From positions 14,018 through 28,493 of the forward strand of contig CAXTKV010000047.1 in assembly GCA_964244895.1 (NCBI GenBank): a stretch of 14,476 nt of DNA, given 5' to 3'. The DNA comes from an uncultured Deinococcales bacterium. Its GTDB lineage: Bacteria; Deinococcota; Deinococci; Deinococcales; JAAFIG01. The notes beneath the pieces were generated by a model. That model did not search any database and had not been told where the DNA came from. It saw nothing but the letters and a program-made list of their open reading frames with translations. A program made the position numbers and the translations under genes. Below, one piece after another: positions 111-14,476 of this stretch (position 1 is its first letter; each line of letters begins with the position of its first letter).

Positions 111-1013
111 CTAAAGCTCCGTCCTGACCTGCCACAACTCCGGGAACAGCACCACGTCGAGCGCGCGGCGCAAGTACGGCACACCCGCCGTGCCGCCAGA
201 ACCGCGCTTGAAACCGATCACGCGCTCCACCGTCACGAGGTGGTTGAAGCGCCAGCGCCTGAAATTGTCCTCCACGTCCACCAGCTTTTCCGCCAGCGCG
301 TACAAGTCCCAGTATCGCGCCGTATCGCGGTAGACCTCGAGCCAGGCGTTCAGCACGGCCTCGTTCGGTTCGTAGGGTTGAGCAAAATCGCGTTTCAGGA
401 CGCCCTCTGGGATGTTCAGCCCTCGAGACGCGAGCAATCGAATCGAGAGGTCGTAGAGGCTCGGCGTTTGCAGCGCGTCCTCGAGCGAGCGGTGATGATC
501 CGGCCTGTGCTCGTGCGGGCGCATCATGAAGGACTGACGGTTGCCGAACAAAAACTCGATCAACCGATACTGGTGCGATTGAAAACCCGACGCCTGCCCA
601 AACGCTGATCGGAACACCAGGTAATCGGCGGGCGTCATGGTCTTCAAGACCTCCCAGGCGTTCGTCATCTGCTCCTGCGCCCTGGACACGCGCGCCAGCA
701 TCTTCATGGCCGGGTCGATCACGCCACCTTCCAGGCAGCGCATCGCGCTCGAGAGTTCGTGAATTAAAAGCTTCATCCAGAGTTCCTGCACTTGATGAAT
801 GGCGATGAAGAGCGGTTCGTCGTGCGCGTCCGTCAGGGGTCGTTGCGCGCCCAGCAGTTCGTCCAGCGCCAGGTAATCGCCGTAAGAGAAGGCGTTCTTG
901 AAGTCCGTGTGCGCGGTTCGGAACGTGGTTTCATCCCGAGGAGCACCGTCCTGGACAGCATTCTCAGGGATCGCGTCTGGGACGGTGTTGTTTCGTTTCG
1001 AGTCGTCTGGCAT
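111..1013 (-). CDS. kynA: Tryptophan 2,3-dioxygenase
   Basis: Motifs SYGDYL, HDEPLFIAIHQVQELW, SGFQSHQYR, WRFNHLVTVERVIGFKRGSGG and LFPELW. Start is ATG 1013 or the adjacent GTG 1016; there is no in-frame Met between these and the conserved core. Confidence 0.96.
   Translation of the reverse strand: MPDDSKRNNTVPDAIPENAVQDGAPRDETTFRTAHTDFKNAFSYGDYLALDELLGAQRPLTDAHDEPLFIAIHQVQELWMKLLIHELSSAMRCLEGGVIDPAMKMLARVSRAQEQMTNAWEVLKTMTPADYLVFRSAFGQASGFQSHQYRLIEFLFGNRQSFMMRPHEHRPDHHRSLEDALQTPSLYDLSIRLLASRGLNIPEGVLKRDFAQPYEPNEAVLNAWLEVYRDTARYWDLYALAEKLVDVEDNFRRWRFNHLVTVERVIGFKRGSGGTAGVPYLRRALDVVLFPELWQVRTEL
941..989. repeat. Palindromic element copy 2, inside the 5' end of the TDO ORF
   Basis: gagcaccgtcc-t-ggacagcattctc...gcgtctgggacggtgtt; the first unit is near-identical to that at 10751-10772. 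Confidence 0.85.
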
Positions 1014-1037
1014 CACATCGCTCGATTCTCGAGATCA

Positions 1038-1150
1038 TGCGTAGGCCGAGTCTCGAGTAATTGTTTCCGCTCGAGGGCGAACACGTCACGTGAAGCGTGC
1101 TGAAGCACGATACCTGCAGCGTGCTGAAGCACGATACCCGCCCCTACGCA
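1038..1150. repeat. GTAG-type REP/REPIN-like element with an internal 24-bp tandem hairpin duplication
   Basis: Terminal inverted repeat tgcgtagg (1038-1045) / cctacgca (1143-1150). agcgtgctgaagcacgatacc occurs at 1094-1114 and 1118-1138, each containing the hairpin CGTGCT-GA-AGCACG. The right end reads GTAGGGGCG on the minus strand. Confidence 0.6.
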
Positions 1151-1176
1151 AGCATCAAGGTTTCTCGAGCAACCAA

Positions 1177-1225
1177 AAACACCGTCCCAGACGACGTTTT
1201 CTCGAGCGCGTCCAGCACGGTGCTT
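1177..1225. repeat. Palindromic element copy 3 (dimeric, CTCGAG at the junction)
   Basis: aaacaccgtcccagacgacgttttctcgagcgcgtccagcacggtgctt. Confidence 0.8.
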
Positions 1226-1233
1226 CCCCATCG

Positions 1234-1626
1234 TCATTCCGGGATCACCGCCGTCGCCTCGATCTCTACCTTGGCCGCATCCTCGATCAGCGCGGAAACC
1301 TCGACCACGCTCATGACGGGGTAATGCCGCCCCATCACATCCCGATACGCCGGGCCGAGATGCTCGAGCGAAGCCAGGTATTCGCGCTTGTCCGTCACGA
1401 ACCAGGTCAGGCGCACGATGTGCTCCGGCCCGCCGCCCGCCTCGCGCAGCACGGCCACGATGTTGGATAAAGCCTGATGAACCTGACCCGCAAAATCGTG
1501 CGTCTCGAACTGACCATCCTGGTTCCAGCCGATCATTCCGGCCACGAACACGAGTTGGCCTCTGGCTGAAATACCGTTCGCGTAGCCTTTCGGTTTCGCC
1601 CAGTTTGGGGGTTGCAGCCTCTTCAC
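1234..1626 (-). CDS. RidA/YjgF/UK114 family enamine/imine deaminase
   Basis: 130 aa; LQPPNWAKPKGYANG, VFVAGMIGW, YPVMSVVEVSALI and KVEIEATA. GTG start overlaps the ligase TGA (GTGA). Confidence 0.92.
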   Translation of the reverse strand: MKRLQPPNWAKPKGYANGISARGQLVFVAGMIGWNQDGQFETHDFAGQVHQALSNIVAVLREAGGGPEHIVRLTWFVTDKREYLASLEHLGPAYRDVMGRHYPVMSVVEVSALIEDAAKVEIEATAVIPE

Positions 1627-3257
1627 GGGTTCTCTCGTCTCTCGAGCGCGTCCTGGCGCAACCTGAAGCGCTGCAATTTGCCCGTCTGGGTCTTCGGCAG
1701 CGCGTCGCGGAACTCGATGGCTCGAGGGTACTTGTAGGGCGCGATGGTTCGCTTGACGAAATCCTGGAGTTCCTTGGCCATCTCGGGCGATGGCTCAATT
1801 CCGGCGCGCAGCACGACCACCGCCATCACGATCTGTCCGCGATCCGCGTCCGGCGCACCGATCACGGCGCACTCCGCGACGCTTTTGTGCTGCAAGAGCG
1901 CGCCCTCGACTTCTGGCCCGGCGATGTTGTACCCCGAGGAGATGATCATGTCGTCCGTGCGCGCTTGGTAGTGAAAGTAGCCGTCCTCGTCCATCAGGTA
2001 CGCGTCACCGGTGACGTTCCAGCCGTCGCGCACGTAATGGCGCTGACGATCATCCGCCAGGTATCGGCAACCCGTCGGCCCCTTGACCGCCAGCTTTCCG
2101 ACCTGACCGGGCGGCAGCACGTTCCCATCGTCGTCCATGACGCAGGCCGCGAATCCCGGCACGGGCTTGCCGGTCGCACCCGCCCTGGCCTCGCGTTCGT
2201 CCGCCGAGATGAAGATGTGCAGCATCTCGGTCGCGCCGATGCCGTCGATCAACTCGATGCCCGTCGCTTCGCGCCACAGCGTCCGGGTCGCGGCGGGCAG
2301 CACCTCGCCCGCAGACACGCACTTGCGCAGGCTCGAGAGATCAACATCGCGCACCAGTCCCGCCATCGCGCGGTACGAGGTCGGCGCGGTGAAGACGACG
2401 CTGATCCCGAATTCCGCAATCGCGGGCAGGAGCAATTCCGGCGCGGCCTTTTCCAGCAGCACCGAACTCGCGCCGATTCGCATCGAAAAAAGCACGATCC
2501 CGCCCAGCCCAAAGGTGAACGCGAGCGGCGGGCTTCCCGTGAAGACATCGTCCGCGTTCGCCTTGAGCGTGTGCTTCGCGAAGGTGTCGCAGATGGCGAG
2601 CGCGTCGCGGTGGAAGTGAACGCAGCCCTTCGGCTTGCCGGTCGTGCCCGACGTGAAGGCGATCAACACCACGTCGTCGCGGTGCGTGTCCACGTTCTCA
2701 AAGCTCCCGGATTTGAGCGCCATGCGCGCCTCGAGACCCTCAGCGTCAGCGTTCCCAAAGCGGCAAACGTTCGTCAGCGACGGACAATCCGGCAGCGCGT
2801 TCTCGAGTTCCTCCGCCAGCCTGGCGTCCACCAGCGCGTGCGAGATTTCCGCTTTCGTGACCACATCGGTCAGTTCCTTCGCGCGCAGCAGCGGCATGGT
2901 CGCGACCACGATCCCGCCCGCCTTGACGATCCCGAACCAGCACGCGACCATCATCGGGTTGTTGAACCCGTGCAGCAGCACCCGGTTTCCCGCCTCGAGC
3001 CCATGATCTTCGACCAGCACGCGCGCGATCCGGTTGGATCGATCCAACAAATCCTGGTACGTCCAGGTCACGCCCGGCGCGCGGAACGCGACGCGCTCGC
3101 CCCAACCGCGTGAGATCGCAGCATCCAACAGTTCCGTGGCACAGTTCAGGTGCTCCGGGTAGCGCAACTCGGGCAACTCGAACACGAATTCGGGCTGGAA
3201 TTCCGTGGGCGGCAAGTGATCCCTGGCGAACGTGTCCGTGTGCGCCGTCCAGTTCAC
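1623..3257 (-). CDS. abmG: 2-aminobenzoate-CoA ligase-like AMP-dependent aryl-CoA ligase
   Basis: AMP-binding motif [11 protein letters not shown], plus DGIGATE, TGD, RTDDMI and [11 protein letters not shown]. The N-terminal [14 protein letters not shown] is typical of this subfamily, and the operon context fits. Substrate is inferred. Confidence 0.88.
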
Positions 3258-4447
3258 GCGAGTTTCGCCTCCTCTCGAGATTGGCGTTCCTTGAAAGATT
3301 TCAGCACTTCGCGCGCAATGATCATCTGCTGCACTTCGGTCGCGCCCTCGTAGATGCGGAGCGTGCGAACCTCGCGGTAGAGGGATTCCACGACGCTACC
3401 GCGCGTCACGCCCAACCCGCCGAAGATCTGCACGGCGTTGTCGATCACGCGCTGCGCTTCCTCGGTGGCGGTCATCTTGGCCATCGCGGCTTCCTTGGTG
3501 ACGCGCTCGCCGCGATCTCGCATCCAGGCCGCGCGATACACGAGGAGCGCACTCGAGTCCACGGCGGTGGCCATGTCCGCCAGTTTTGCTTGCGTCAACT
3601 GAAAATCCGCCAGCGTCTGCCCGAACATGGTTCTCGAAGTCGCACGCCCCAGGGATTCGTGCAGCGCGCAGCGCGCGAAGCCGAGCGCGGCGGCGGCCAC
3701 GGACGTTCTGAAGACATCCAGCGTGCTCATGGCGATCTTGAAACCCTGACCGGGTTCACCGATCAATCGGTTTTTGGGCACGCGGCAATTCCTGAACTCG
3801 AGCCTGGCCAGCGGGTGCGGCGCGATCACCTCGATGCGCTCTGCGATCTCGAGGCCGGACGTATTGGCGTCCACGATGAACGCGCTGATGCCCCTCGAAC
3901 CCGCCTCCCCGGTGCGCGCGAACACCACGTAGAAATCCGCGATGCCACCGTTGCTGATCCAGGTTTTCGCGCCGTCCAGCACGTAGTAGTCACCCTCGAG
4001 CCGCGCGGCGCAGGTCATGGCCGCCACGTCCGAACCAGCAAGAGGTTCGGAGAGCGCGAAGGCTGCGATCATCTGGCCGCTCGAGACGCCAGGCAGGTAC
4101 GCGCGTTTCTGATCCGGCGCGCCGAACAACGAGATCGCGCCCGAGCCCAAACCCTGCATCGCGAAGCAGAAATCCGCCAGTCCATCGTGCCGCGCCAGCG
4201 TCTCGCGGATCAGGCAGATGGCGCGCGTGTCGATCTGGTCGGCCTTTCCGCCGTTTTCCCGACCCGCCACCGCATAGCGGAACCAGCCACCCGCACCCAG
4301 GCTCGAGACGCGCTCCTTGCAGGCAGCGTCAACATCAGCACCGTGAAAATGCTCCAGGTTCCGCGCCGCCCACGCGTCCAGATCGCGCTCGAGGTCGGCG
4401 TGGTGCGCATCGAAGAAGGGCCACTCGAGATACGACTTATCGGTCAT
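3254..4447 (-). CDS. Acyl-CoA dehydrogenase
   Basis: [33 protein letters not shown] and IYEGATEVQ. Start placed at [12 protein letters not shown] (ATG 4447, GAGGG upstream); the longer ORF start at 4495 lies within a repeat. Confidence 0.93.
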
Positions 4448-4487
4448 GATTCTTGCCCTCGCTCGATCGAGACTCGAGAGGAATGAA

Positions 4488-4555
4488 GAGAACACCGTCC
4501 CAGACGCACTTTTTCGAAATCACGAGGACACCGTGCTGGACGGTGTTCTCTCGAG
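4488..4555. repeat. Palindromic element copy 4 (perfect 13-bp terminal inverted repeats)
   Basis: gagaacaccgtcc (4488-4500) / ggacggtgttctc (4538-4550), running into ctcgag (4550-4555). Confidence 0.92.
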
Positions 4556-4579
4556 GCGCACCGATCATCTCGGGCATCG

Positions 4580-5449
4580 TTAATCCCCCTCGAAGCGCGG
4601 CTTTTCCTTGGCGGCAAAGGCGTGAAATGCCCTGTGGAAATCTCGGGTCGCCATGCAGATCGCCTGCGCCTGAGCTTCCGCTTCGATGGCCTCATCCAGC
4701 CCCATGTTCCATTCCTGGTGCAGCATTTTTTTGGTCATGCCGTGGGCGAAGCTCGGCCCAATCGCCAATTCTCGAGCCAGGGCTTGCGCATCCTCTAGAA
4801 CGCTTTCAGGCGCGCAGATACGGTTGAGAAATCCCCAGCGCTCGGCCTCGTCACCACCCATCGAGCGGCCCGTGTACAACAGTTCCGATGCGCGACCCTG
4901 ACCGATCACCCTGGGCAAGAGCGCGCACGCGCCCATGTCGCACCCGGCCAGACCGACGCGGGTGAACAAGAAGGCCGTCTTGCTGCGGGCCGTGCCCAAA
5001 CGCACGTCGCTCGCAAGGGCGATCATCGCGCCCGCGCCGACGCACACGCCGTCCACGGCACTGATGATCGGTTGCGGGCAGGCGCGCATGGCCTTGACCA
5101 GATCGCCGGTCATGCGCGTGAACGCGAGAATGCCGGGCATGTCCATTTGGGTCAGCGGCTCGATGATCTCGAAGACATCGCCGCCGGAAGAAAAGTTCTG
5201 GCCCGCGCCCGTCACGACGATGGCCTTCACGTCGGATGCGGAGGCAAACGCGCGAAACAGGTCGCGCAACTCGGCGTAACTCTCGAAGGTCAGCGGGTTC
5301 TTGCGCTCGGGACGGTTCAGCGTGATGGTCGCCACGCCGTCAGTCGCGGCGTACCCGAAGTGCTGCGCCTCGTAGTTCGCGAGCTCGAGCGCGTTTCCGG
5401 GCAAGCGCACCCTCCCCTCGGCTCGGGTCAGATTTCCGGGCAGCTTCAT
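4580..5449 (-). CDS. Enoyl-CoA hydratase/isomerase (crotonase family)
   Basis: [30 protein letters not shown] and [16 protein letters not shown] overlaps the marR stop (ATGA); an alternative GTG start lies at 5410. Confidence 0.93.
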
Positions 5450-5943
5450 GGGTTCACCTCCGCGTTCAGATGCGATTTCAGTTTGGCGAGCAAGCCGTAC
5501 ATGGCGTCCTTTTCTCGAGCCGACAGACCACAGAAGAACTCGATCACCCAGCCCTCATGAACCCGCGCCATCTGCGCGAAGGTCTTGTGCCCCGACTTCG
5601 TGAGCTTGACCGTGAACGAGCGCCGATCCGACGCGTCCACCTCGCGCGCCACCAATCCTTCGCGCTCGAGCTGATCGGTGATACCGGTGACGTTGCCGCT
5701 CGTGACCATCATGCGTTTTGAAAGTTCGCCCATCTTCAAACCTTCCGGGCTGCGCTCGAGTTGCGCCAACAGATCGAAGCGCGGCAGGGTCGTGTCGAAC
5801 TCCTCGCGCAATCGCGACCTGATCTCGGTTTCGATCAGGTTGGTGCAGGTCAGCAAACGCAACCAGAGCTTGATGGCCTGGTGGTGATCCGCCTCGATGC
5901 GCGTCTCGAGGTCGATGGGTAGGGGTTCAAGGGTGGCTGTCAT
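5446..5943 (-). CDS. MarR family transcriptional regulator
   Basis: Winged [52 protein letters not shown]. Confidence 0.95.
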
Positions 5944-6714
5944 TCACATCACCTCTCCGCCCGCTACTGGAATGGCCTGACCCGTGACGGACGCGGAACC
6001 GGGCTGGCACAGCCACAGCACGGCCTCGGCAATTTCATGGGGTTCGATCAGGCGGCCTTGCGGGTTCGTCTTGACCAGTTCGGCTCGAGCCTCGCGTTCT
6101 TCGCGTCCGGTTCTGGCGACGATGTTGGCCACGGCATCGCGCACGATGTCGGTGTCGGTGTAACCGGGGCAGACCGCGTTGACCGTGATGTTTTTCCTGG
6201 CCAGCTCGAGCGCCAGGGCGCGCGTCAAACCGATCACGCCGTGCTTGGCCGCGCAGTAGGCCGTCACATACGGATACCCGACCAATCCCGCCGTGCTGGA
6301 CACGTTCACGATCCGTCCCCAGCCCGCCTCGAGCATCCCCGGCAGCGCCGCCTGAGCGCACAGGAACGCGCCCGTCAGGTTGACCTCGAGCATCGCGTTC
6401 CATAGCTCGAGACTTGTTTTGAGGAACGCCTGACTCTGCGCCTGCCCCGCGTTGTTGACCAGGATCGTGACCGGACCGAGCGCATCGGACGCGCCAGAGA
6501 ACGCGCCCAGGACGCTCTGCTGATCGGTCACGTCGGCGGTCTCGAGATGCACTTCCGCGAACTCGCGCAATTTCTGGGCGCGCTGCTCGAGCGCGTCCAA
6601 TGATCGCCCCATCAGCGTGACCTTCGCACCGGATCGCGCCAACGATTCCGCGATGGCCGCGCCGATGCCGCGCCCACCACCCGTCACGACCGCGTGCCTG
6701 CCAGCGAGGGTCAC
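5944..6714 (-). CDS. SDR family NAD(P)-dependent oxidoreductase (3-hydroxyacyl-CoA dehydrogenase-like)
   Basis: [12 protein letters not shown], catalytic YCAAK and VCPGY. GTG start with GAGG 6 nt upstream. Confidence 0.94.
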
Positions 6715-6740
6715 GGTGCGCCTCGAGATACAACGTTCAG

Positions 6741-6801
6741 GAACACCGTCCGGGACGGTGTTTTCTCGAGATCAAAAAATCGCGTGCCAGACGGTGTTCT
6801 C
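6741..6801. repeat. Palindromic element copy 5 (dimeric)
   Basis: gaacaccgtcc-g-ggacggtgttttctcgag...gtgccagacggtgttctc. Confidence 0.9.
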
Positions 6802-6823
6802 AAAAATATACCCAGAATTCCGT

Positions 6824-9169
6824 TCATCTCGAGGCCAACTCCTCGGCCTTGTCCACCTGCACGCGCGCCAGGTTGCGCTCGAGTTGCGCCTTGCCCGTCA
6901 GGTACGGCTTGGGCCATTCCACCTCGCGGTAGCCGAGGTTGGCGGCCTGGTGGAGCGTCCAGGCGGCGTCCGCCAGGTGCGGTCTGGCGATGGCGCACAG
7001 GTCGGCGCGTCCCGCCGCGATGATGCTGTTGACGTGATCGGCCTCGAAGATCGCGCCGACGGCCATGGTCGCCATGCCGAGCTCGTTGCGGATGCGGTCG
7101 CTGAATGGTGTCTGGTACATGCGCCCGTACACGGGTCGGGCATCTCGGGTGGTCTGACCGGAGGACACGTCCATCAGATCCGCACCCGCCGCCTCGAACA
7201 TCCGGGCAATCCGCACGGCGTCCTCGGGCGTGTTGCCGCCCTCCGCCCAGTCGTGCGCGCTGATGCGCACGGACATCGGCAGGTGGTCGGGCCAGACGGC
7301 GCGCATGGCGGAAAAAACCTCCAGCGGGTAGCGCATCCGGTGCTCGAGACTGCCGCCGTAGTCGTCGGTGCGCTGGTTGGTGAGCGGGCTGATGAAGGCT
7401 GAAATCAAATAGCCGTGCGCGGCGTGCAGTTCCAGCCAGTCGAAACCCGCATCGATGCCCATGCGGGTCGCCCTCACGAAGTCATCCAGCACGCGATCCA
7501 TGTCGGCGCGGGTCATGGCTCGCGGAACCTGATTGCGCGGGCCGTAGGCAATGCTCGAGGGCGCGATCAACGGCCAGTTTCCGGTCGGCAGCGGTTCGTC
7601 GCCGTCCTCCCAGCCGAGTTGCGTGCTGCCCTTCGGCCCGGCGTGCCCGAGTTGCAGGGCGATCTTGGCGCTCGAGTTCTGATGGACGAAATCCGCGATG
7701 CGCCGCCAGGCGCGAACGTGTTCCGGCGCGTACATCCCGGCGCAACCGGGCGTGATGCGCGCGTCCGCAGACGGGCAGGTCATCTCCGTGAAGACCAGTC
7801 CCGCGCCGCCCATCGCGCGCGTGCCCAGGTGGACGAGATGGAAATCTCCGGCGATTCCGTCCTGCGCCGAGTACATCGCCATCGGGCTGACGACCACGCG
7901 GTTTTTCAAGGTCACGCCGCGCAAGGTGAACGGCGTGAACATCGGCGGTACGGGCTTCGGTGGCAATCCTGATCGCTGCGCCAGCCACGATTCCATGCCC
8001 TCGACGTAGCGCTCGTCGCGCAACCGTAAATTCTCGTGCGAGATGCGTTGCGAGCGCGTCAGCAGGCTGTACGCGAACTGTTCGGCCTCGAGCGCGGTGT
8101 AACGATCCACGTTCTCGAACCATTCGGTGCTGTTGCGCGCGGCGTTCTGAATTTTCAGGACTTCAACGCTCCGCTCCGCGACGTAGGCCTCGAGAATCTG
8201 CTCGAGGTTCCCCGACGGATCGGTTCCGCCGTGCTTCTCGAACGCCCTGGAGAGGCCGATCGCGTCCTCGAGCGCCAGCTTCGTGCCGGAACCGATGGAA
8301 AAATGTGCCGTGTGCGCCGCGTCGCCCATCAGCACGACGGGCACGCGCTGGCCGTCCAGGTCGTTCCACTGCACCCAACTTTTGCAGATCACGCGCGGGA
8401 ACCTGATCCAGATCGCGCTGCCGCGCAGGTGCGCGGCGTTCGAGATCAGGCCGTGACCGCCCAGGTACGGCTCGAACAGTTTCTCGCAGAACGCAATGCC
8501 GTCTTGCTGGCTCATGGCTTCCAGCCCCGCAGCGCGCCAGACGTGCTCCGGCGTCTCGACGATGAAGGTGCTGGTGTCGCCATCGAACTGGTACGCGTGC
8601 GCCTGGAACCAGCCGTGTTCGGTCTGGGCAAAGGCGAAGGTGAAGGCGTCGAATTTCTGTTTCGTACCCAGCCACACGAAACGGCACTGTCGCAATTCCA
8701 CGTCCGGTTGAAACGTCGCTTCGTACTTTTTTCGGATGCGCGAGTTCAACCCGTCGGATGCGATCACCAGATCGGCCCGGTAACGCCGCGCGATTTCTTG
8801 ATCGTCCGCGACATCGGCCTCGAACTCGAGCCTCACGCCCAATTCGGCGCAGCGATCCTGAAGGATGTTCAGCAAACGCTTGCGCCCGATGCCGCAGAAG
8901 CCGTGCCCGCCGGAGGTGATCGTGCGGCCCTTGAAATGCACGTCGATGTCGTCCCAGTGGTTGAAGGCGCTCTGAATGGTGGCGCTCGAGGAGGGGTCTG
9001 CAATTTCCAGATTCCCCAGCGTCTGGTCGCTGAAGACCACGCCCCAGCCGAAGGTATCGCCGGGTCGGTTGCGTTCCAGGACGGTGATGTCGAATTCCGG
9101 GTGGCGTTTTTTCAGCAGCAGGGCCGAGTACAACCCCGCTGGCCCGCCGCCGATGCAGACGATTCGCAT
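6824..9169 (-). CDS. abmA: Bifunctional 2-aminobenzoyl-CoA monooxygenase/reductase (salicylyl-CoA 5-hydroxylase/oxidoreductase family)
   Basis: 781 aa. N-terminal FAD monooxygenase ([38 protein letters not shown]) fused to an Old Yellow Enzyme domain ([26 protein letters not shown]). GAGG RBS upstream. Confidence 0.93.
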
Positions 9170-9209
9170 GGGAACCTCATTGGATCGTTGAAGCTCGAGA
9201 TTCGAGTTT

Positions 9210-9265
9210 GTTTGAAGTCTAAACTATTGAGGCTTAAGATAGTACGCGCGACACCCAAAATGCAA
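9210..9265 (-). promoter_or_regulatory. Putative operon promoter with two candidate MarR operator boxes
   Basis: AT-rich patch. Minus strand reads TTGCAT (9265-9260) N18 TATCTT (9241-9236). Related boxes ttgaagtctaa (9212-9222) and ttgaggcttaa (9227-9237) have dyad character and overlap the -10/+1 region. Confidence 0.5.
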
Positions 9266-9333
9266 ATCGAGGGAACACCGTCCAGGACGCCATTCTTGTA
9301 TTCTCGAGAAACACTGTGCTGGACGGTGTTCTC
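9266..9333. repeat. Palindromic element copy 6 (dimeric), in the divergent promoter region
   Basis: gaacaccgtccag (9273-9285) / ctggacggtgttc (9319-9331) form a perfect inverted repeat; internal ctcgag at 9303. Confidence 0.92.
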
Positions 9334-9363
9334 GTCGTAACATGAGCCAGAGGGGGAATGGGC

Positions 9364-9711
9364 ATGAGCGAAATTGACGATTCCTTTGACCTGTACGACC
9401 TGCGCGTGGAATGGACGCCCGGTGACAAACCCTGCTACTGCAGCGGCAAACCCGGCGATCACTTCGAGCTTCACGGCGAGCAACTACAATTCCCGCCCGG
9501 TCAGACCTGGAGCATCTACACGCTGGCGGCGCTGTTGCCGATCCTGCCCGCCAAGCAGCGACCAACGCACCCGAACGACTGGATCACCACGGACGCGCTG
9601 ATCGCCTGCCCGGACCCGAACTGCGGATCGCGGTTCAGGATCACGCGTTCCGGGACGCGCAGCTTCAAGCACAGCGAAGTCACCGCCGTACCGCTCGAGG
9701 GCAACTCGTGA
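9364..9711 (+). CDS. TIGR04076-like small Cys-motif protein
   Basis: FDLYDLRVE, CYC, LAALLPILPAKQR and ACPDPNCG. GGGGG RBS 7 nt before ATG 9364 (alternative ATG 9358). Stop overlaps the AKR start (GTGA). Family recognised from memory. Confidence 0.8.
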   Translation: MSEIDDSFDLYDLRVEWTPGDKPCYCSGKPGDHFELHGEQLQFPPGQTWSIYTLAALLPILPAKQRPTHPNDWITTDALIACPDPNCGSRFRITRSGTRSFKHSEVTAVPLEGNS

Positions 9712-10748
9712 GCCTCGAGCGCCAGGAAATCGCGCCCGGTTACTCGATCTCGAGGGTCATCAAGGGCGGCTGGCATCTGGCGGGCGGACACGGACAGATC
9801 GACCGCACCCGCGCGATTGACGACATGGCGAGCTTCGTGGAAGCCGGCATCACGACCTTCGATTGCGCCGATATCTACACGGGCGTCGAGGAATTGATCG
9901 GCGACTTCCGCCGCGCGTACCCCGAACTCGCAAAACGCATTCAAGTTCACACCAAGTTCGTGCCGGACTACGACAAACTCCAAGACCTCGAGCCCGCGTC
10001 CATCGAATCCATCATCGACCGCTCGAGAACCCGGCTCGGTGTAGACGCCCTCGATCTGGTGCAGTTCCACTGGTGGGATACCAACGTCAAAAAGTACGTT
10101 CAGGCCGCGCTCGAGCTGAAGCGCCTTCGGGACGCGGGCAAGATTCGGCACATCGGGTTGACGAACTTCAATACGGCTTGCACCAAAGAAATTCTCGAGG
10201 CTGGCGTGCCCGTCGTCTCCACACAAGTTCAATACAGCGTTCTCGATCAGCGTCCGACCCGAGAACTCGCGGATGACTGCGTTCAGAACGGTGTGGCGCT
10301 GCTGTGCTACGGCTCGCTGGCGGGCGGATTGCTCTCGGACGAATGGCTGGGCAAACCGAAACCGACGGAACCGTTCGAGAACCGATCCCACACGAAATAC
10401 GAGCTGATCATCGAAGATTTCGGCGGTTGGGAACTGTTCCAGGAATTGCTCGGGACGCTTCAAGGCATTGCTGATCAGCACGGCTCGAGCATCGGACAGA
10501 TCGCCTCGAGCTGGACGCTGCACCAACCCGGCGTGGCCGCCGCCATCGTCGGCGCGACCTCCACGCGCCACCTGACGCAGAACCTTCGCATTCCAGCCAT
10601 CCAGCTTTCACCCGATGACCTGGCCGCGATCCGGCGCGTCACGATTCGGCGCTCCGGCCCGAAGGGTGACGTCTACGACCTCGAGCGCGACAAGGACGGA
10701 CGGCACGGACGCATCATGAAGTACAACCTGAACGAGGATCGCACGTAG
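9708..10748 (+). CDS. Aldo/keto reductase
   Basis: Catalytic tetrad context FDCADIY, HTKF and VQFHW; also IGLTNF, QVQYS, YGSLAGGLL and AIVGATS. Confidence 0.94.
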   Translation: MSLERQEIAPGYSISRVIKGGWHLAGGHGQIDRTRAIDDMASFVEAGITTFDCADIYTGVEELIGDFRRAYPELAKRIQVHTKFVPDYDKLQDLEPASIESIIDRSRTRLGVDALDLVQFHWWDTNVKKYVQAALELKRLRDAGKIRHIGLTNFNTACTKEILEAGVPVVSTQVQYSVLDQRPTRELADDCVQNGVALLCYGSLAGGLLSDEWLGKPKPTEPFENRSHTKYELIIEDFGGWELFQELLGTLQGIADQHGSSIGQIASSWTLHQPGVAAAIVGATSTRHLTQNLRIPAIQLSPDDLAAIRRVTIRRSGPKGDVYDLERDKDGRHGRIMKYNLNEDRT

Positions 10749-10801
10749 AACACCGTCCTGGACAGCATTCTCGAGAGTACGTCCTGGACGGTGCTCTCGA
10801 G
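10747..10801. repeat. Palindromic element copy 7 (dimeric), overlapping the AKR stop codon
   Basis: agaacaccgtcc-t-ggacagcattCTCGAGagtacgtcc-t-ggacggtgctCTCGAG. Confidence 0.92.
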
Positions 10802-10880
10802 AACGACCCCTCCGTCTCGAGCAGCACGAACACCAGAGGCATGCCGCTCGAGCCATCTCTCTCAACCAAGCAGGGGGACG

Positions 10881-10927
10881 AAAAACGAATCAGGCACGAG
10901 AGGACGTGACCCCTCGAGCCTGAGTCG
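10881..10927 (-). terminator. Probable intrinsic terminator of the binding-protein gene
   Basis: Imperfect stem cgaatcaggcacgagag / ccctcgagcctgagtcg followed by TTTTT on the minus strand (aaaaa 10881-10885), starting 8 nt after the stop. Confidence 0.6.
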
Positions 10928-10935
10928 TGCTGCAT

Positions 10936-12114
10936 TTACTTCGGTGAGGGCGCGTTCACGGTGATCGTGTTGAAGACCTTGTTGTCGTTGTACTCCGGTT
11001 GCGCCGCGATGATGAAATACTTGGCCACGGGCAGATCGCCGCGCTCGTTGAAGGCGATCTTGCCGGTCAAGCCGGTGAAGTTCACGCTGCGCACAGCCTT
11101 CGCCACGGCCTCGCGCGTGGGCTTCGCGCCCTTGCCCGCGCGGATGGCGTCAGCGATGCCCTGAAGGATGGCTCGGGCGGCGTCGTAGGCGTAGGCGCTG
11201 TAACCTTCGGGGTCTTTGCCGAATTTGGCCTTGTAGCGTTCCGCGAAGCGCTTGGCGCTCGGCAACGCGCTCAGCGGCGCACCCATCGTAGCGAAGTACA
11301 CGCTTTTCATCATGTCCGGCCCGGCGATCTTCTGCAAATCGCTGCCGTCGTACCCGTCGCCGCCCAATAAGGGGGCCGTCACGCCCTTCTGGCGCATCTG
11401 CTTCAACAAGACCGCCGCCTGATCGTAGATCGCGCCGAAGAACACGGCGTCGGGCTTGTCCACCACGGCGCGGTTGAGCACGGAACTGAAATCGGTTTCG
11501 GTGCTGGCGATGCCACCCTCGTACACAATCTCGACGCCCAGGGTTTTGAGCGTCCTCGAGACTTCCGCCGCGATGCCATCGCCGTAAGCGGTCTTGTCGG
11601 ACAGCACGTACATGCGTTTGGCCTTGAGGGTCTTGGCGGCGAACTCCGCGATGGCTGGCCCGGCCACATCATCTCGACCGCAGACGCGGTTGACGTTCGG
11701 CAAGCCGCGATCCGTGACTTTCGTACCCGTGTTCGTCGGCGAGATCATCACCAGCCCGACCTTGGCATAAACCTCGCTGGCGGGGACGCTGACGCCGGAA
11801 TTGAAGTGACCCATCACGCCCAGCACGTCCGGATCGTTGATCACACGGTTCGCGTTGGCCGTACCCACGTCCGGTTTGGCCTGATCGTCGTAGGGTTCAA
11901 ACGCCAGCTTGAAACCCCAGCTCGTGACCAGCTTGCCAAAATCGTCCAACGCCAGTTGCGCACCGTTCCTGACGGCCTCGCCCAGCACCGATTGCCCGCC
12001 GGAAAGCGGCGATTGCGACACGACCTTGATCGTGCCCTTGCCCTGCGCCGAAGCGATCATCAAACCGCCCACCAGCACGCCCGCACCGATTGCCGCCACC
12101 GCTTTCAGCTTCAT
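10936..12114 (-). CDS. Branched-chain amino acid ABC transporter substrate-binding protein (LivJ/LivK family)
   Basis: Signal peptide MKLKAVAAIGAGVLVGGLMIASAQ; SQSPLSG, YDDQAKPD, GHFNSGV, DKTAYGDG and AYAYDAA. Strong GGAGGAGG RBS before ATG 12114. Confidence 0.94.
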   Translation of the reverse strand: MKLKAVAAIGAGVLVGGLMIASAQGKGTIKVVSQSPLSGGQSVLGEAVRNGAQLALDDFGKLVTSWGFKLAFEPYDDQAKPDVGTANANRVINDPDVLGVMGHFNSGVSVPASEVYAKVGLVMISPTNTGTKVTDRGLPNVNRVCGRDDVAGPAIAEFAAKTLKAKRMYVLSDKTAYGDGIAAEVSRTLKTLGVEIVYEGGIASTETDFSSVLNRAVVDKPDAVFFGAIYDQAAVLLKQMRQKGVTAPLLGGDGYDGSDLQKIAGPDMMKSVYFATMGAPLSALPSAKRFAERYKAKFGKDPEGYSAYAYDAARAILQGIADAIRAGKGAKPTREAVAKAVRSVNFTGLTGKIAFNERGDLPVAKYFIIAAQPEYNDNKVFNTITVNAPSPK

Positions 12115-12350
12115 ACGACCCCTCCTCCACCCTCGAGATTGGCCCAAAACCCTGCTCGAGCGTGGCGCGATTCTAAGCGCTAGGAGGGTCAACATGGATT
12201 TCTCGAGAGCGCCACAGCCGTACCCGTCAAAAAGTGCGGTTTTTTGCGGGCACGCCCCGATGCGGTGCTACCGTCCGGCCAGGCCTTCGGCCTGCGAACC
12301 TTGAAAACTCGCCCGCCAGGATCTGTTCCACTTCTTTTTTGGAGATTTTT

Positions 12351-12560
12351 ATGCAAGTAACAATCAAACGCGCCAGCTTTTTATTACTCGGTATGGTGTT
12401 GGGAACAGCTACATATTTTGGTGGCTGGATGATTTATTTTTACTTCAATCCGCCGAAAGAGTGCTTCACGCCCGTGTACTCATCCGATCCACTGATGAAG
12501 GCATATCAATTTGGTACGGATCGTAACGCGAGTGATCAGACGATCTGCGCTGAGGACTGA
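12351..12560 (+). CDS. Small hypothetical single-pass membrane protein (69 aa)
   Basis: GGAG at 12341-12344 precedes the ATG. Basic N-terminus, then hydrophobic FLLLGMVLGTATYFGGWMIYFYF, then a short tail with two Cys. AT-rich, with a downstream hairpin. Confidence 0.55.
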   Translation: MQVTIKRASFLLLGMVLGTATYFGGWMIYFYFNPPKECFTPVYSSDPLMKAYQFGTDRNASDQTICAED

Positions 12561-12607
12561 GCGGGCGACAAGGTGGGTTCTGGTCAGGATTTCCCTGGCT
12601 GAACCGC

Positions 12608-12651
12608 AGCGCTGGAAGTGTCGGCATTCGCCCACATTTCCAGCGCTCTTT
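12608..12651. terminator. Long hairpin between the convergent small ORF and cobW; probable terminator
   Basis: agcgctggaa (12608-12617) / ttccagcgct (12638-12647) pair perfectly and extend inward with one G-U and one mismatch to the loop attc; followed by cttt. Confidence 0.6.
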
Positions 12652-12669
12652 GATGCAACCTCGATAAAA

Positions 12670-12718
12670 AGAACACTGTCCCACACGATGTTCTCGAGAA
12701 TACGTGCAGGACGGTATT
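12670..12718. repeat. Palindromic element copy 8 (degenerate dimer), overlapping the cobW stop
   Basis: agaacactgtcccacacgatgttCTCGAGaatacgtgcaggacggtatt. Confidence 0.8.
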
Positions 12719-13679
12719 AGCGCACGATCTTTTTGACCACCTGCGATTTCCCGAGCTTCGCGAACGCATCGCGGTACTCGGTTTCGTCCAGGCCGCGCCC
12801 AATCACGACCAGGCTGGATCGCGCGCTCTGCTTCGGGTTGCCCTGGTGGGCGGAAAAAATCTCGCGCACGCTCTGGAACACGATCTCGTGGTGGACTTCA
12901 GGGAACATCAAAAAACCTTTGGCGCGGAAAACGCTGCCGGGCCTGGAAAGAATTTTTTCCTCGAGAAACGTGTTCCAGGCGAACACGTCCAGGGGTTCGT
13001 CGTTGACGAGGCTGAAGCTGACCATGCCGGGCGTGTGTTCGTGGTGGTGGCCTTTGGGCTTCCAATCCGGCGAGAACGCGTCCTGCGCGATGATTTCTTT
13101 GGCGTCCACGTTCGCGTTCTGGGTTTCGGTCACGTCGGACATCGGGTTCAGCCCGCGCAGCAGACCCCTGGCTTGCTCGAGATCATCAGGTGTGGCCAGA
13201 TCGGTTTTGTTCAGCACGATGGCGCTCGCGTACGCGAGTTGCACCGCGCCTTCCGGACCTTCGGTCAGGGTTTTTTGCAGGTTGCGCGCGTCCGCCACGC
13301 CGATGATGCCGTCCAGGTCGAACAAGCCGCGCAACTGTGGGTCGAGCACCGTCTGCGCGACCGGAACCGGGTCGGCCAACCCGGAGAGTTCGATCAGAAG
13401 GTGTTCCGGCGGGTTTTTTCGCAAAGCGAGCTTGAGCATCGCTTCGGCCAGATCGTCGCGGCCCGCGCAGCAGATGCAGCCGCCCGCGAATTCCGCCACG
13501 CCGTCATCGTCGAGGTTTTCGATCAGCGCGCCGTCGATGCTGGTCTCGCCGAATTCGTTGACGATCACGCCGAAGCGTTTGCCACCGTCCTTGATGATGT
13601 GGTTGACCAGCGTGGTCTTGCCCGCGCCCAGGAAACCGCCGACGATGGTCACGGGAATGCGCTGTTTGAACTGGAACAT
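12717..13679 (-). CDS. CobW/COG0523 family metallochaperone GTPase
   Basis: Walker A GFLGAGKTT, VNEFGE, metal motif GCICC, IELSGLADP, LNKTD, short His stretch GHHHEH and CobW_C FRAKG. Confidence 0.94.
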   Translation of the reverse strand: MFQFKQRIPVTIVGGFLGAGKTTLVNHIIKDGGKRFGVIVNEFGETSIDGALIENLDDDGVAEFAGGCICCAGRDDLAEAMLKLALRKNPPEHLLIELSGLADPVPVAQTVLDPQLRGLFDLDGIIGVADARNLQKTLTEGPEGAVQLAYASAIVLNKTDLATPDDLEQARGLLRGLNPMSDVTETQNANVDAKEIIAQDAFSPDWKPKGHHHEHTPGMVSFSLVNDEPLDVFAWNTFLEEKILSRPGSVFRAKGFLMFPEVHHEIVFQSVREIFSAHQGNPKQSARSSLVVIGRGLDETEYRDAFAKLGKSQVVKKIVR

Positions 13680-13685
13680 GAAAAG

Positions 13686-13694
13686 ACTCTATCA
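13686..13694 (-). promoter_or_regulatory. Extended -10 promoter for probable leaderless cobW mRNA
   Basis: Minus strand reads TGA-TAGAGT-cttttc-ATG: a TGn-TANNNT element 6 nt before the start codon, with no SD sequence. Confidence 0.6.
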
Positions 13695-13790
13695 GCGCGA
13701 GGCGCGCCGAACCGTCATCCTCGAGACGAGGACAAAGATCGCGCCTCGAACGTGATGCTCGAGCGACCCCTCCGGCATCGGACAAAAGCA

Positions 13791-13821
13791 AGAACACCGT
13801 CCAGGACGGTGTTCTCTCGAG
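13791..13821. repeat. Palindromic element copy 9 (perfect monomer)
   Basis: agaacaccgtcc-a-ggacggtgttct is a perfect 25-bp palindrome (13791-13815), followed by ctcgag (13816-13821). Confidence 0.95.
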
Positions 13822-13846
13822 ATCAACATATGCGTGCTACGCGGTG

Positions 13847-14476
13847 TTACTTCAATCCGGCCTTACGGCGAATCTCGGTGATGCTCCAGCCGGTCAGGTT
13901 GGCCAGGGTTTGCGCCTGACGCTCGAGGCGCTTGGGCAGGTCAGCCTGGTACGTTTTGGCCTCGTCGCACTTGGCCTCACCCTGCCAGGCGTGGCGAAGG
14001 ATGTAGCGACCCTGGAAGTTCTGGTTGCTGGGCGTCTCGCGGAACATCAGGTCTTCCTTGAACCGCAACTTGCTGTAGCGCACGTGCAATCGCGTCAGGA
14101 AGACCCCGCCGCTCTGCCCGACCCAGCCCGCACCCGCGCGTTGCAATTCGTCCGGTGTGGGCGGCGCGCTGGCGCACGGGTCGCACCAGGACGTGTCCCA
14201 GGCGTATTCCATGAAGACGCTGCGGCGGTTCTCGCGCTTGAAGGCAGTATCGAACATGGATTTGTAAAAGCGGCTGAATTCGTCCTTCACGAACAGCGGG
14301 ACTTCAGCGTCCGATGGCACGGGCACGGTCGAGTAATTGACCGTCTCGACCCGGCCCTTGCGCGTCAGGGCGTACACGATCAGATCCTGATCGCCGACCG
14401 CGTTGACCATGCCCAACCGCAACGGCAGCATGAAACCGGGGCTCTCGAAGCTCATCTGACGCGGGCGCAAGGGGGT
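13847..14476 (-). CDS. DUF2330-like protein, C-terminal part (gene begins beyond the window)
   Basis: Open frame to the window edge; FMLPLRLGMVNA, EYAWDTSWCDPCA, FLTRLHVRY and NFQGRYILRH. Family recognised from memory. Confidence 0.8.
   Translation of the reverse strand, partial: TPLRPRQMSFESPGFMLPLRLGMVNAVGDQDLIVYALTRKGRVETVNYSTVPVPSDAEVPLFVKDEFSRFYKSMFDTAFKRENRRSVFMEYAWDTSWCDPCASAPPTPDELQRAGAGWVGQSGGVFLTRLHVRYSKLRFKEDLMFRETPSNQNFQGRYILRHAWQGEAKCDEAKTYQADLPKRLERQAQTLANLTGWSITEIRRKAGLK

Follow-up and report, generated by a model that had tools for sequence, protein, structure and literature searches.

CTCGAG in the window

This report concerns the palindromic hexamer CTCGAG in a stretch of 14,476 nucleotides (the window) from the genome of an uncultured Deinococcales bacterium, hereafter G000. 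A first-pass annotation had estimated about 80 copies, roughly 15 times the expected number, and had likened the word to the highly iterated palindrome (HIP) known as HIP1. Direct counting yields 81 copies between positions 336 and 13927 (5.6/kb), a 16.7-fold excess over the 4.85 copies expected from base composition at 62.4% GC; 200 dinucleotide shuffles of the window contain 6.58 copies on average and 15 at most. As had been claimed, the sites occupy several reading frames as well as intergenic DNA: 38 encode Leu-Glu, 14 lie in frame 2 (x-Ser-Ser/Arg), 6 in frame 1 (x-Arg-x), and 23 are intergenic. With gene limits set in the present analysis, this amounts to 23 sites per 1,502 bp of intergenic and 58 per 12,974 bp of coding sequence. 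Two clusters of sites that had been noted in gaps, one of three and one of five, are both present. The sites are listed below, with the strand where one applies.

336..13927: CTCGAG copies, 81 by direct count
1028..1075: three CTCGAG between genes, on the upstream side of the tryptophan 2,3-dioxygenase gene (count and Pfam Trp_dioxygenase)
1641..1646, minus strand: CTCGAG at the C-terminus of the AMP-ligase open reading frame (ORF; Leu-Glu)
3274..3279, minus strand: CTCGAG at the C-terminus of the acyl-CoA dehydrogenase-like ORF (Ser-Arg-Glu)
6828..6833, minus strand: CTCGAG within the final codons of the 781-aa flavin oxidoreductase ORF (Ala-Ser-Arg)
9694..9719, plus strand: two CTCGAG where the C-terminus of a 117-aa ORF meets the N-terminus of the aldo-keto reductase
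10770..10918: five intergenic CTCGAG in the gap between the aldo-keto reductase and periplasmic binding protein genes, the first two overlapping or abutting a palindromic repeat

The minus strand from 111 to 9169 carries what we take to be an aromatic-catabolism-like cluster, presumably comprising tryptophan dioxygenase, a RidA-like protein, AMP ligase, acyl-CoA dehydrogenase, enoyl-CoA hydratase, a MarR-like regulator, a short-chain dehydrogenase/reductase and the 781-aa FAD/FMN fusion; names beyond the Pfam matches are our own assumption. Directly downstream of the tryptophan dioxygenase gene, positions 1-30 hold a unit of about 14 bp in tandem (two complete copies and a partial third).

Genome-wide excess and codon choice

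The G000 assembly is fragmented (5.12 Mb, 62.7% GC, 91% complete), and the genome stands alone in its genus. CTCGAG is its commonest hexamer, with 21,883 copies (4.27/kb, about one per 230 bases) and an observed/expected ratio (O/E) of 9.8 under an order-2 Markov model; among contigs longer than 5 kb the lowest density is 1.59/kb. Most other hexamer palindromes are depleted, among them CGATCG (order-2 O/E 0.32). Octamers with a CTCGAG core are abundant with many different flanks, and no flanking consensus emerges. Since ATCGAT, TTCGAA and GTCGAC are under-represented (order-2 O/E 0.46, 0.21 and 0.22) and half of the TCGA tetramers in the window (81 of 164) belong to CTCGAG, the excess is not an effect of TCGA.

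Could codon usage produce it instead? Codon-level tests drew on 4,068 G000 genes from a purpose-made gene caller and on three synonymous-codon shuffles. An excess of 4.7-fold is left after shuffling, the highest of all hexamers tested, and it is found in the Leu-Glu frame (4.1-fold) as in the other two (15.5-fold and 7.4-fold). Both checks proposed in the first-pass annotation, genome-wide counts against Markov models and against codon-preserving shuffles, thus leave the excess in place, and its view that codon bias alone is inadequate is borne out in all three frames. Leu-Glu is the most enriched dipeptide of the proteome (2.11-fold), and CTC GAG spells 10,972 of its 18,508 occurrences; CTC makes up 87% of CTN codons ahead of GAG, versus 21% of Leu codons elsewhere. 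CTCGAG is, in other words, a DNA word that doubles a dipeptide across a proteome. Next to it, TTCAGG ranks second among the hexamers of G000 coding DNA for enrichment after synonymous shuffling (3.9-fold), and CTT accounts for 47% of CTN before CAG.

The sites favour non-coding DNA (6.3/kb, against 3.8/kb in coding DNA). Within genes, the last 60 nt carry 5.72/kb, the first 60 nt 3.94/kb and the middle 3.58/kb. The proposal that sites crowd at protein termini therefore holds for C-terminal ends, and all five end sites that had been named in the window are present; crowding at N-termini is weak. Density by decile of codon score, which falls from 4.6 to 2.3/kb, was set aside as a circular measure.

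A trait of one family

We surveyed 151 genomes of the order, for which the sizes of the relatives' genomes were rounded. In the family of G000 (f1, 19 genomes) every member carries CTCGAG at 4.3-6.8/kb, that is one per 150-230 bases and 12,000-35,000 copies each; the f1 loci that were read have a GC content of 47-62%. Other families of Deinococcales span 0.01-3.4/kb, with 0.01-0.27 in f3, 0.6-1.1 in g9, 1.4-3.0 in g13, 2.9-3.4 in g22, 0.3-2.6 in f2 and 0.7-2.9 in f4.

Homologs of the CobW protein of the window gave the same picture. Eleven records named as Deinococcales metagenome-assembled genomes (69-75% identity) have a CTCGAG O/E of 16-36 at their CobW loci, and a twelfth locus, from Clostridiales, is without CTCGAG. 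RecA proved too conserved to sample relatives (2 Trueperaceae among 80 loci), and its set of 80 loci from other genomes was kept as background, with a median O/E of 0.59 and a maximum of 5.4. Given this separation (16-36 versus at most 5.4), the ratio is usable as a marker of this uncultured family in short contigs. CTCGAG-rich viral contigs, picked by triple sites and hence ascertainment-biased, amount to 126 loci, and a single 37% match is their only link to the G000 host.

The family also avoids certain words. GAGCTC is nearly missing, with 0-25 sites in 16 of the 18 relatives, 114 and 161 in the remaining two and 568 in G000, despite CTCGAG flanks that are expected to create it often. In the f1 loci sampled, GGCC, CAGCTG, CCGCGG, GCGCGC and TTCGAA are at or near zero, an unusually strong avoidance of restriction sites.

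Gain and loss of sites

With G000 alone in its genus, rates were estimated on six genomes of the sister genus g4 (83-89% identity), from a first alignment of 60 kb and an enlarged set of 75 genes (78 kb of coding DNA). In the first 60 kb CTCGAG is kept in 1,274 of 1,580 pairwise comparisons (81%), which ranks it first among 462 hexamers; the figure for all hexamers is 45%. A maximum-likelihood (ML) tree model was fitted to 391 conserved Leu-Glu columns, with control rates from 578 Leu and 714 Glu columns. Relative to these controls CTCGAG is gained 6.5 times faster (bootstrap 5-95%, 4.9-7.4) and lost at 0.12 times the rate (0.10-0.16), about 8 times slower. The log-likelihood is -1498 for the model with both effects, -1614 for loss only and -1620 for gain only. 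A one-way form of the mutational ratchet that the first-pass annotation had envisaged is thereby rejected, since either one-sided model loses more than 115 log units.

The pull acts along every path: gain and loss factors are 4.3 and 0.13 for A>G at position 6, 10.7 and 0.30 for T>C at position 3, and 14.8 and 0.07 for G or A>C. Frame 2 (35 columns) gives 6.9 and 0.14 and frame 1 (74 columns) 13.9 and 0.08; Leu-Asp controls (61 columns of the smaller first alignment) give gains of 1.2-1.5 and losses of 0.6-1.5. The motif-forming base is favoured at every synonymously variable position, by transversions too, and because the bias spans all positions and includes transversions, it does not stem from a single type of deamination or repair. 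All six bases are drawn toward CTCGAG in both directions, equivalent to a fixation bias near 4. A ratchet of a single mutation type was rejected separately: the nine words one change away from CTCGAG for the most part show no depletion (O/E 1.0-2.6 in G000 and 0-3.8 in small samples of relatives, with a background trained without CTCGAG).

Non-synonymous changes to Leu-Glu number 30 against 13.6 expected, though just 7 of the 30 produced CTC GAG directly. Parsimony on terminal branches gives a synonymous loss ratio of 0.33, weaker than ML; it offered 94 opportunities for gain, and ML was used instead. Sites lie in less conserved stretches of protein (neighbour identity 0.872 versus 0.906), and the Leu and Glu that they encode are more conserved (0.981 and 0.966, versus 0.946 and 0.913).

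These rates also bear on the proposal that weak selection, with a scaled coefficient of about 4 per site, keeps CTCGAG in large numbers for a nucleoid, SMC or repair protein to bind, a role suggested for HIP1 too. CTCGAG is the best-conserved hexamer in g4, and a selection model with the single parameter S = 3.85 reaches a log-likelihood of -1509 versus -1498 for the gain-and-loss model, capturing most of the signal. No candidate binding protein has come to light, and we consider this explanation rather unlikely.

Candidate methylases

The first-pass annotation had proposed a search for a methylase of the PaeR7I/XhoI or TaqI type. Active m6A (N6-methyladenine) CTCGAG methylases without listed nucleases are known from Marinithermus hydrothermalis, Meiothermus ruber and M. 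chliarophilus (Blow 2016, Table S3, PMC4752239). We searched four Pfam methylase classes, in G000 by six-frame profiles. No cognate CTCGAG methylase was found in the six-frame search of the 91% complete G000, which carries one BREX-type, one type I-type, one DUF6094, one beta and one alpha methylase and no C5 methylase. The beta and alpha genes each sit beside likely nuclease genes, and the DUF6094 gene sits in a mobile-looking island. Contigs C139 and C50 hold what we take to be a BREX-like cluster, split over contig ends, and this island, which presumably also has PRTRC-like genes. G030, a relative in a single contig, has one C5 methylase, no beta and two alpha matches.

Three gamma-class candidates occur in the order, with predicted specificity for CTCGAG or TCGA. 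Class A is TaqI-like (E 1.5e-126 to M.TaqI), with strong matches in 24 genomes, among them all 22 of g9; class B is present in 25 genomes; class C has 9 strong matches and adjoins an XhoI-family nuclease in G016. Among the 19 f1 genomes classes A and B are each found in none, and class C in one, as a 29% match. Other methylases are common there (PF07669 in 18, PF01555 in 17, PF00145 in 18 and PF02086 in 18 of 19), yet in none of the four Pfam classes did a methylase shared by the whole family appear. Clustering of loci (30 of 70 C5, 30 of 65 beta, 25 of 34 alpha and 43 of 78 gamma matches) returned patchy groups of at most 9 genomes each, often beside nuclease-like genes. TaqI_C domains are absent from G000 and G030 and patchy in f1 (9 of 19 at E 0.05). 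The XhoI-family nuclease PF04555 is found in 0 of 19 f1 genomes and 6 of 151 across the order, and Vsr in none of five genomes checked. CTCGAG itself is present in 68 of 76 f1 methylase ORFs (340 sites in 85.9 kb).

A beta-class methylase of f4 that lies beside XhoI-family nucleases matches 21 of 24 f1 beta ORFs at 23-45% identity, over partial lengths only. At the f4 loci L349 and L350 the nuclease lies tail-to-tail with a methylase of the beta class (SPPY) and not of the gamma class. The M.TaqI-like methylase of g9 is distributed as a conserved gene would be, not patchily in the manner of a restriction methylase. It was noted in G125 and G008 as well, and the G125 match carries an internal stop.

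Could a methylation-directed ratchet of the type proposed by Elhai nonetheless operate, in which an orphan methylase marks CTCGAG and repair favours the marked strand, its gene being missing from the assemblies or too divergent? The active enzymes of Marinithermus and Meiothermus speak for it (PMC4752239), as do the g13 genomes, all ten of which (1.4-3.0/kb) have one of two gamma-class methylases that occur in only 1 of 36 genomes of CTCGAG-poor f3, at 27% identity. Set against this are the near-absence of all three classes from f1, the lack of a C5 methylase in G000, of a beta-class one in G030 and of Vsr, and two genomes at 2.9-3.4/kb without any of the three classes. All 22 g9 genomes have the TaqI-like enzyme, yet they reach only 0.6-1.1/kb. 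The correlation with a methylase gene across relatives, a check proposed in the first-pass annotation, gives 1.47/kb with and 1.32/kb without these methylases in f2 (20 versus 17 genomes, p 0.22, kin not being independent). Moreover, the bias is not limited to particular positions of the hexamer. We judge this mechanism unlikely, a little more so than weak selection.

A palindromic repeat beside the sites

G000 contains 2,721 arms of a repeat, forming 671 paired elements mostly of 21, 46-47 or 56-57 bp that fold as hairpins. We presume a likeness to repetitive extragenic palindromic (REP) elements, and call the repeat REP-like. The window holds the following copies.

4491..4547: REP-like palindromic repeat, CTCGAG nearby at 4473 and 4550
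6742..6798: REP-like palindromic repeat, internal CTCGAG at 6765
9274..9330: REP-like palindromic repeat, hairpin z = -5.9, CTCGAG at 9303
10749..10795: REP-like palindromic repeat
13793..13813: short 21-bp REP-like hairpin, CTCGAG at 13816
44-89, 1178-1224 and 12672-12715: further REP-like hairpins

The first-pass annotation had suggested a mechanistic tie between this element and CTCGAG. Such a causal tie finds no support: only 1,246 of the 21,883 CTCGAG sites of G000 lie within 20 bp of an arm, no target duplication was found in that genome, the flanks being inverted and not duplicated, and 20 loci from relatives hold 0-2 arms each, yet 4.8-7.9 CTCGAG/kb. CTCGAG stands at both ends of 9 of the 671 elements and at one end of 166, and precedes 336 of the 2,721 arms. 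A scan of G000 by regular-expression motifs only found no RAYT-like (REP-associated tyrosine) transposase. The repeat is a passenger, not the cause of the excess. Arms usually end in GAG, and their flanks were probably drawn into CTCGAG like other unconstrained DNA.

Taken together with the codon data, this disposes of the view that codon usage, TCGA bias or the repeat generates CTCGAG as a side effect. The Leu-Glu frame does claim 10,972 of 14,946 coding sites, and the 336 arms do follow the word; the excess that remains after synonymous shuffling, its strength in the other frames, the CTC preference ahead of GAG and the repeat-poor, CTCGAG-richer relatives contradict it, and we count it as refuted.

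Position and spacing

Gaps between sites in G000 are near-exponential, with a coefficient of variation of 0.95 and a tail that matches an exponential. The pair correlation is flat (0.96-1.04) up to 15 kb on contigs of at least 25 kb, so that no periodicity was detected by this method, which differs from that of PMC5861425. Nor was a cluster found at the origin: the 500-bp dnaA-dnaN gap, with 6 DnaA-box matches, contains one CTCGAG. Eight samples around G030 range from 3.85 to 5.25/kb. No position along the genome appears to matter for CTCGAG, which matches the expectation for a molecular drive. That no periodicity was seen out to 15 kb, that no cluster was found at the origin and that densities range over 4.3-6.8/kb without sign of a set spacing argue against selected binding sites; the slight evenness of the gaps argues for them.

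A tentative model

What, then, fixes CTCGAG in these genomes? The word is pulled as a whole hexamer by any type of mutation, is indifferent to position and spacing, fills even patchy genes and yields to protein constraint, a combination that fits biased DNA turnover (PMC2817400). We therefore lean, short of even confidence, toward a HIP-like word that is fixed by biased recombination or repair. A putative CTCGAG-reading step of recombination or mismatch repair would let the strand that spells CTCGAG win. Mismatches that fall in CTCGAG, arising most plausibly where natural transformation has paired donor and recipient strands in a heteroduplex and otherwise from replication errors, would be resolved toward the intact word. 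Such resolution would raise gains and cut losses for any mutation type, and an equilibrium at 4-7/kb would be reached where mutation and protein constraint balance the drive. CTCGAG may originally have been the site that the m6A methylases of related families recognise, and may now be read without a methylase, or with one of an unrecognised class. G000 carries genes for DprA, ComM-like, ComEA-like, ComEC, ComF-like, MutS and MutL proteins. Drive by uptake sequences doubles encoded tripeptides (PMC2817400), and HIP1 raises transformation efficiency in a cyanobacterium (10.1101/2024.09.10.611283).

More speculatively, f1 might write a methylase-independent mark of self, in which a putative CTCGAG-reading recombination or repair factor fixes, against protein constraint, a word taken over from m6A-marking relatives; this more specific proposal is a possibility that we hold with greater reserve. 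If true, it would constitute an independent and denser HIP system, whose reader should be findable in cultured Meiothermus-type relatives.

Several observations weigh against biased recombination or repair. We have not identified a protein that reads CTCGAG. The gain and loss rates, which derive from g4 and not from G000, fit drive and weak selection equally and cannot separate the two. Position 6, taken by itself, is matched by a fixation bias of about 3.5 (gain 4.3, loss 0.13), and the higher turnover at other positions can be explained by segregating variants on terminal branches or by controls selected against CTC, CGA or GAG codons, an argument reasoned rather than simulated. Gaps between CTCGAG are slightly evener than those of five controls (coefficient of variation 0.95 versus 1.03-1.10), a faint sign of selection on spacing. 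Competence genes and NucS fail to single out f1, NucS being present in 15 of 18 f1 genomes and in 22 of 36 of CTCGAG-poor f3. Known uptake sequences, finally, are 9-10 bp long and not palindromic (PMC2817400). NucS as the driver was rejected, as its presence does not track CTCGAG. A product of gain and loss near 1, once considered proof of repair bias, was dropped, since polymorphism, or selection on the controls, leads to such a product as well.

A neighbouring idea is that CTCGAG serves as a DNA uptake sequence in the strict sense, recognised by a receptor at the cell surface before the DNA is transported. The competence genes of G000 and a proteome distorted as with known uptake sequences would agree with it, and a role as uptake signal has been put forward for HIP1 (PMC13756078). 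Yet a 6-bp palindrome discriminates poorly between self and non-self, there is no flanking consensus and no receptor candidate, and we regard this role as improbable.

Comparison with known iterated words

The HIP1-like reading of the first-pass annotation stands as far as the sites themselves go: they are genome-wide, frame-independent and conserved, and they favour places of low constraint. HIP1 (GCGATCGC) and the alternate HIPs of cyanobacteria (GGCGCC, rCCGGy, GCsGC) are likewise described as short palindromes found genome-wide, in all frames and intergenic DNA, conserved beyond codon effects and shared across clades (PMC4390886, PMC5861425). CTCGAG resembles this class in abundance, in its enrichment in all frames and non-coding DNA, and in conservation, and departs from it in that no cognate methylase was found in G000 or family-wide in f1; Elhai reports that every HIP genome has a methylase acting on some portion of its word, with four lacking one for CGATCG (PMC4390886). 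Unlike HIP1, CTCGAG belongs to another phylum and is another word, and no periodicity was seen for it up to 15 kb. It is a counterpart of the HIPs and not HIP1 proper, and at 4,300-6,800/Mb in f1 it exceeds the 300-2,700/Mb given for HIP1 and the 1,000-2,000/Mb given for alternate HIPs.

The uptake sequences of Pasteurellaceae and Neisseriaceae similarly occur in thousands of copies, enrich peptides about twofold and are explained by molecular drive (PMC2817400). They are 9-10 bp long and non-palindromic, their copies number from hundreds to a few thousand, and experiments have demonstrated their uptake, whereas the f1 word has 6 bp, is palindromic and reaches 12,000-35,000 copies. The orphan methylases M.Mhy14884I, M.Mru1279II and M.Mch9957IV recognise the same hexamer in the same phylum, and a Nocardia m5C (5-methylcytosine) enzyme acts on CTCGAG sites that cluster at the origin (PMC4752239). 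By comparison, f1 has no ortholog of the candidate classes apart from the one weak match, no origin cluster and a far higher genome-wide excess. The hairpin repeat of G000 recalls SDR5, a small repeat inserted in HIP1 (PMC4390886), as one that lies beside an iterated word; it differs from SDR5 and REP elements in lacking target duplication, in having CTCGAG at both ends of only 9 of 671 elements and in being nearly absent from the relatives sampled.

Our searches, which covered few subscription journals, found no published account of a CTCGAG excess in Deinococcota. Beyond abundance, the present work adds gain and loss rates at every position, a class-by-class distribution of methylases and the evidence against the repeat as the source of the excess. 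For three decades HIP1 has lacked an explanation, and its tie to methylases concerns a single phylum. The case described here is independent: another word, at two to twenty times the density and apparently without coupling to a methylase, separates methylation from iteration; and within one order, the graded series from 0.01 to 6.8 CTCGAG/kb makes drive versus selection testable in cultured relatives.

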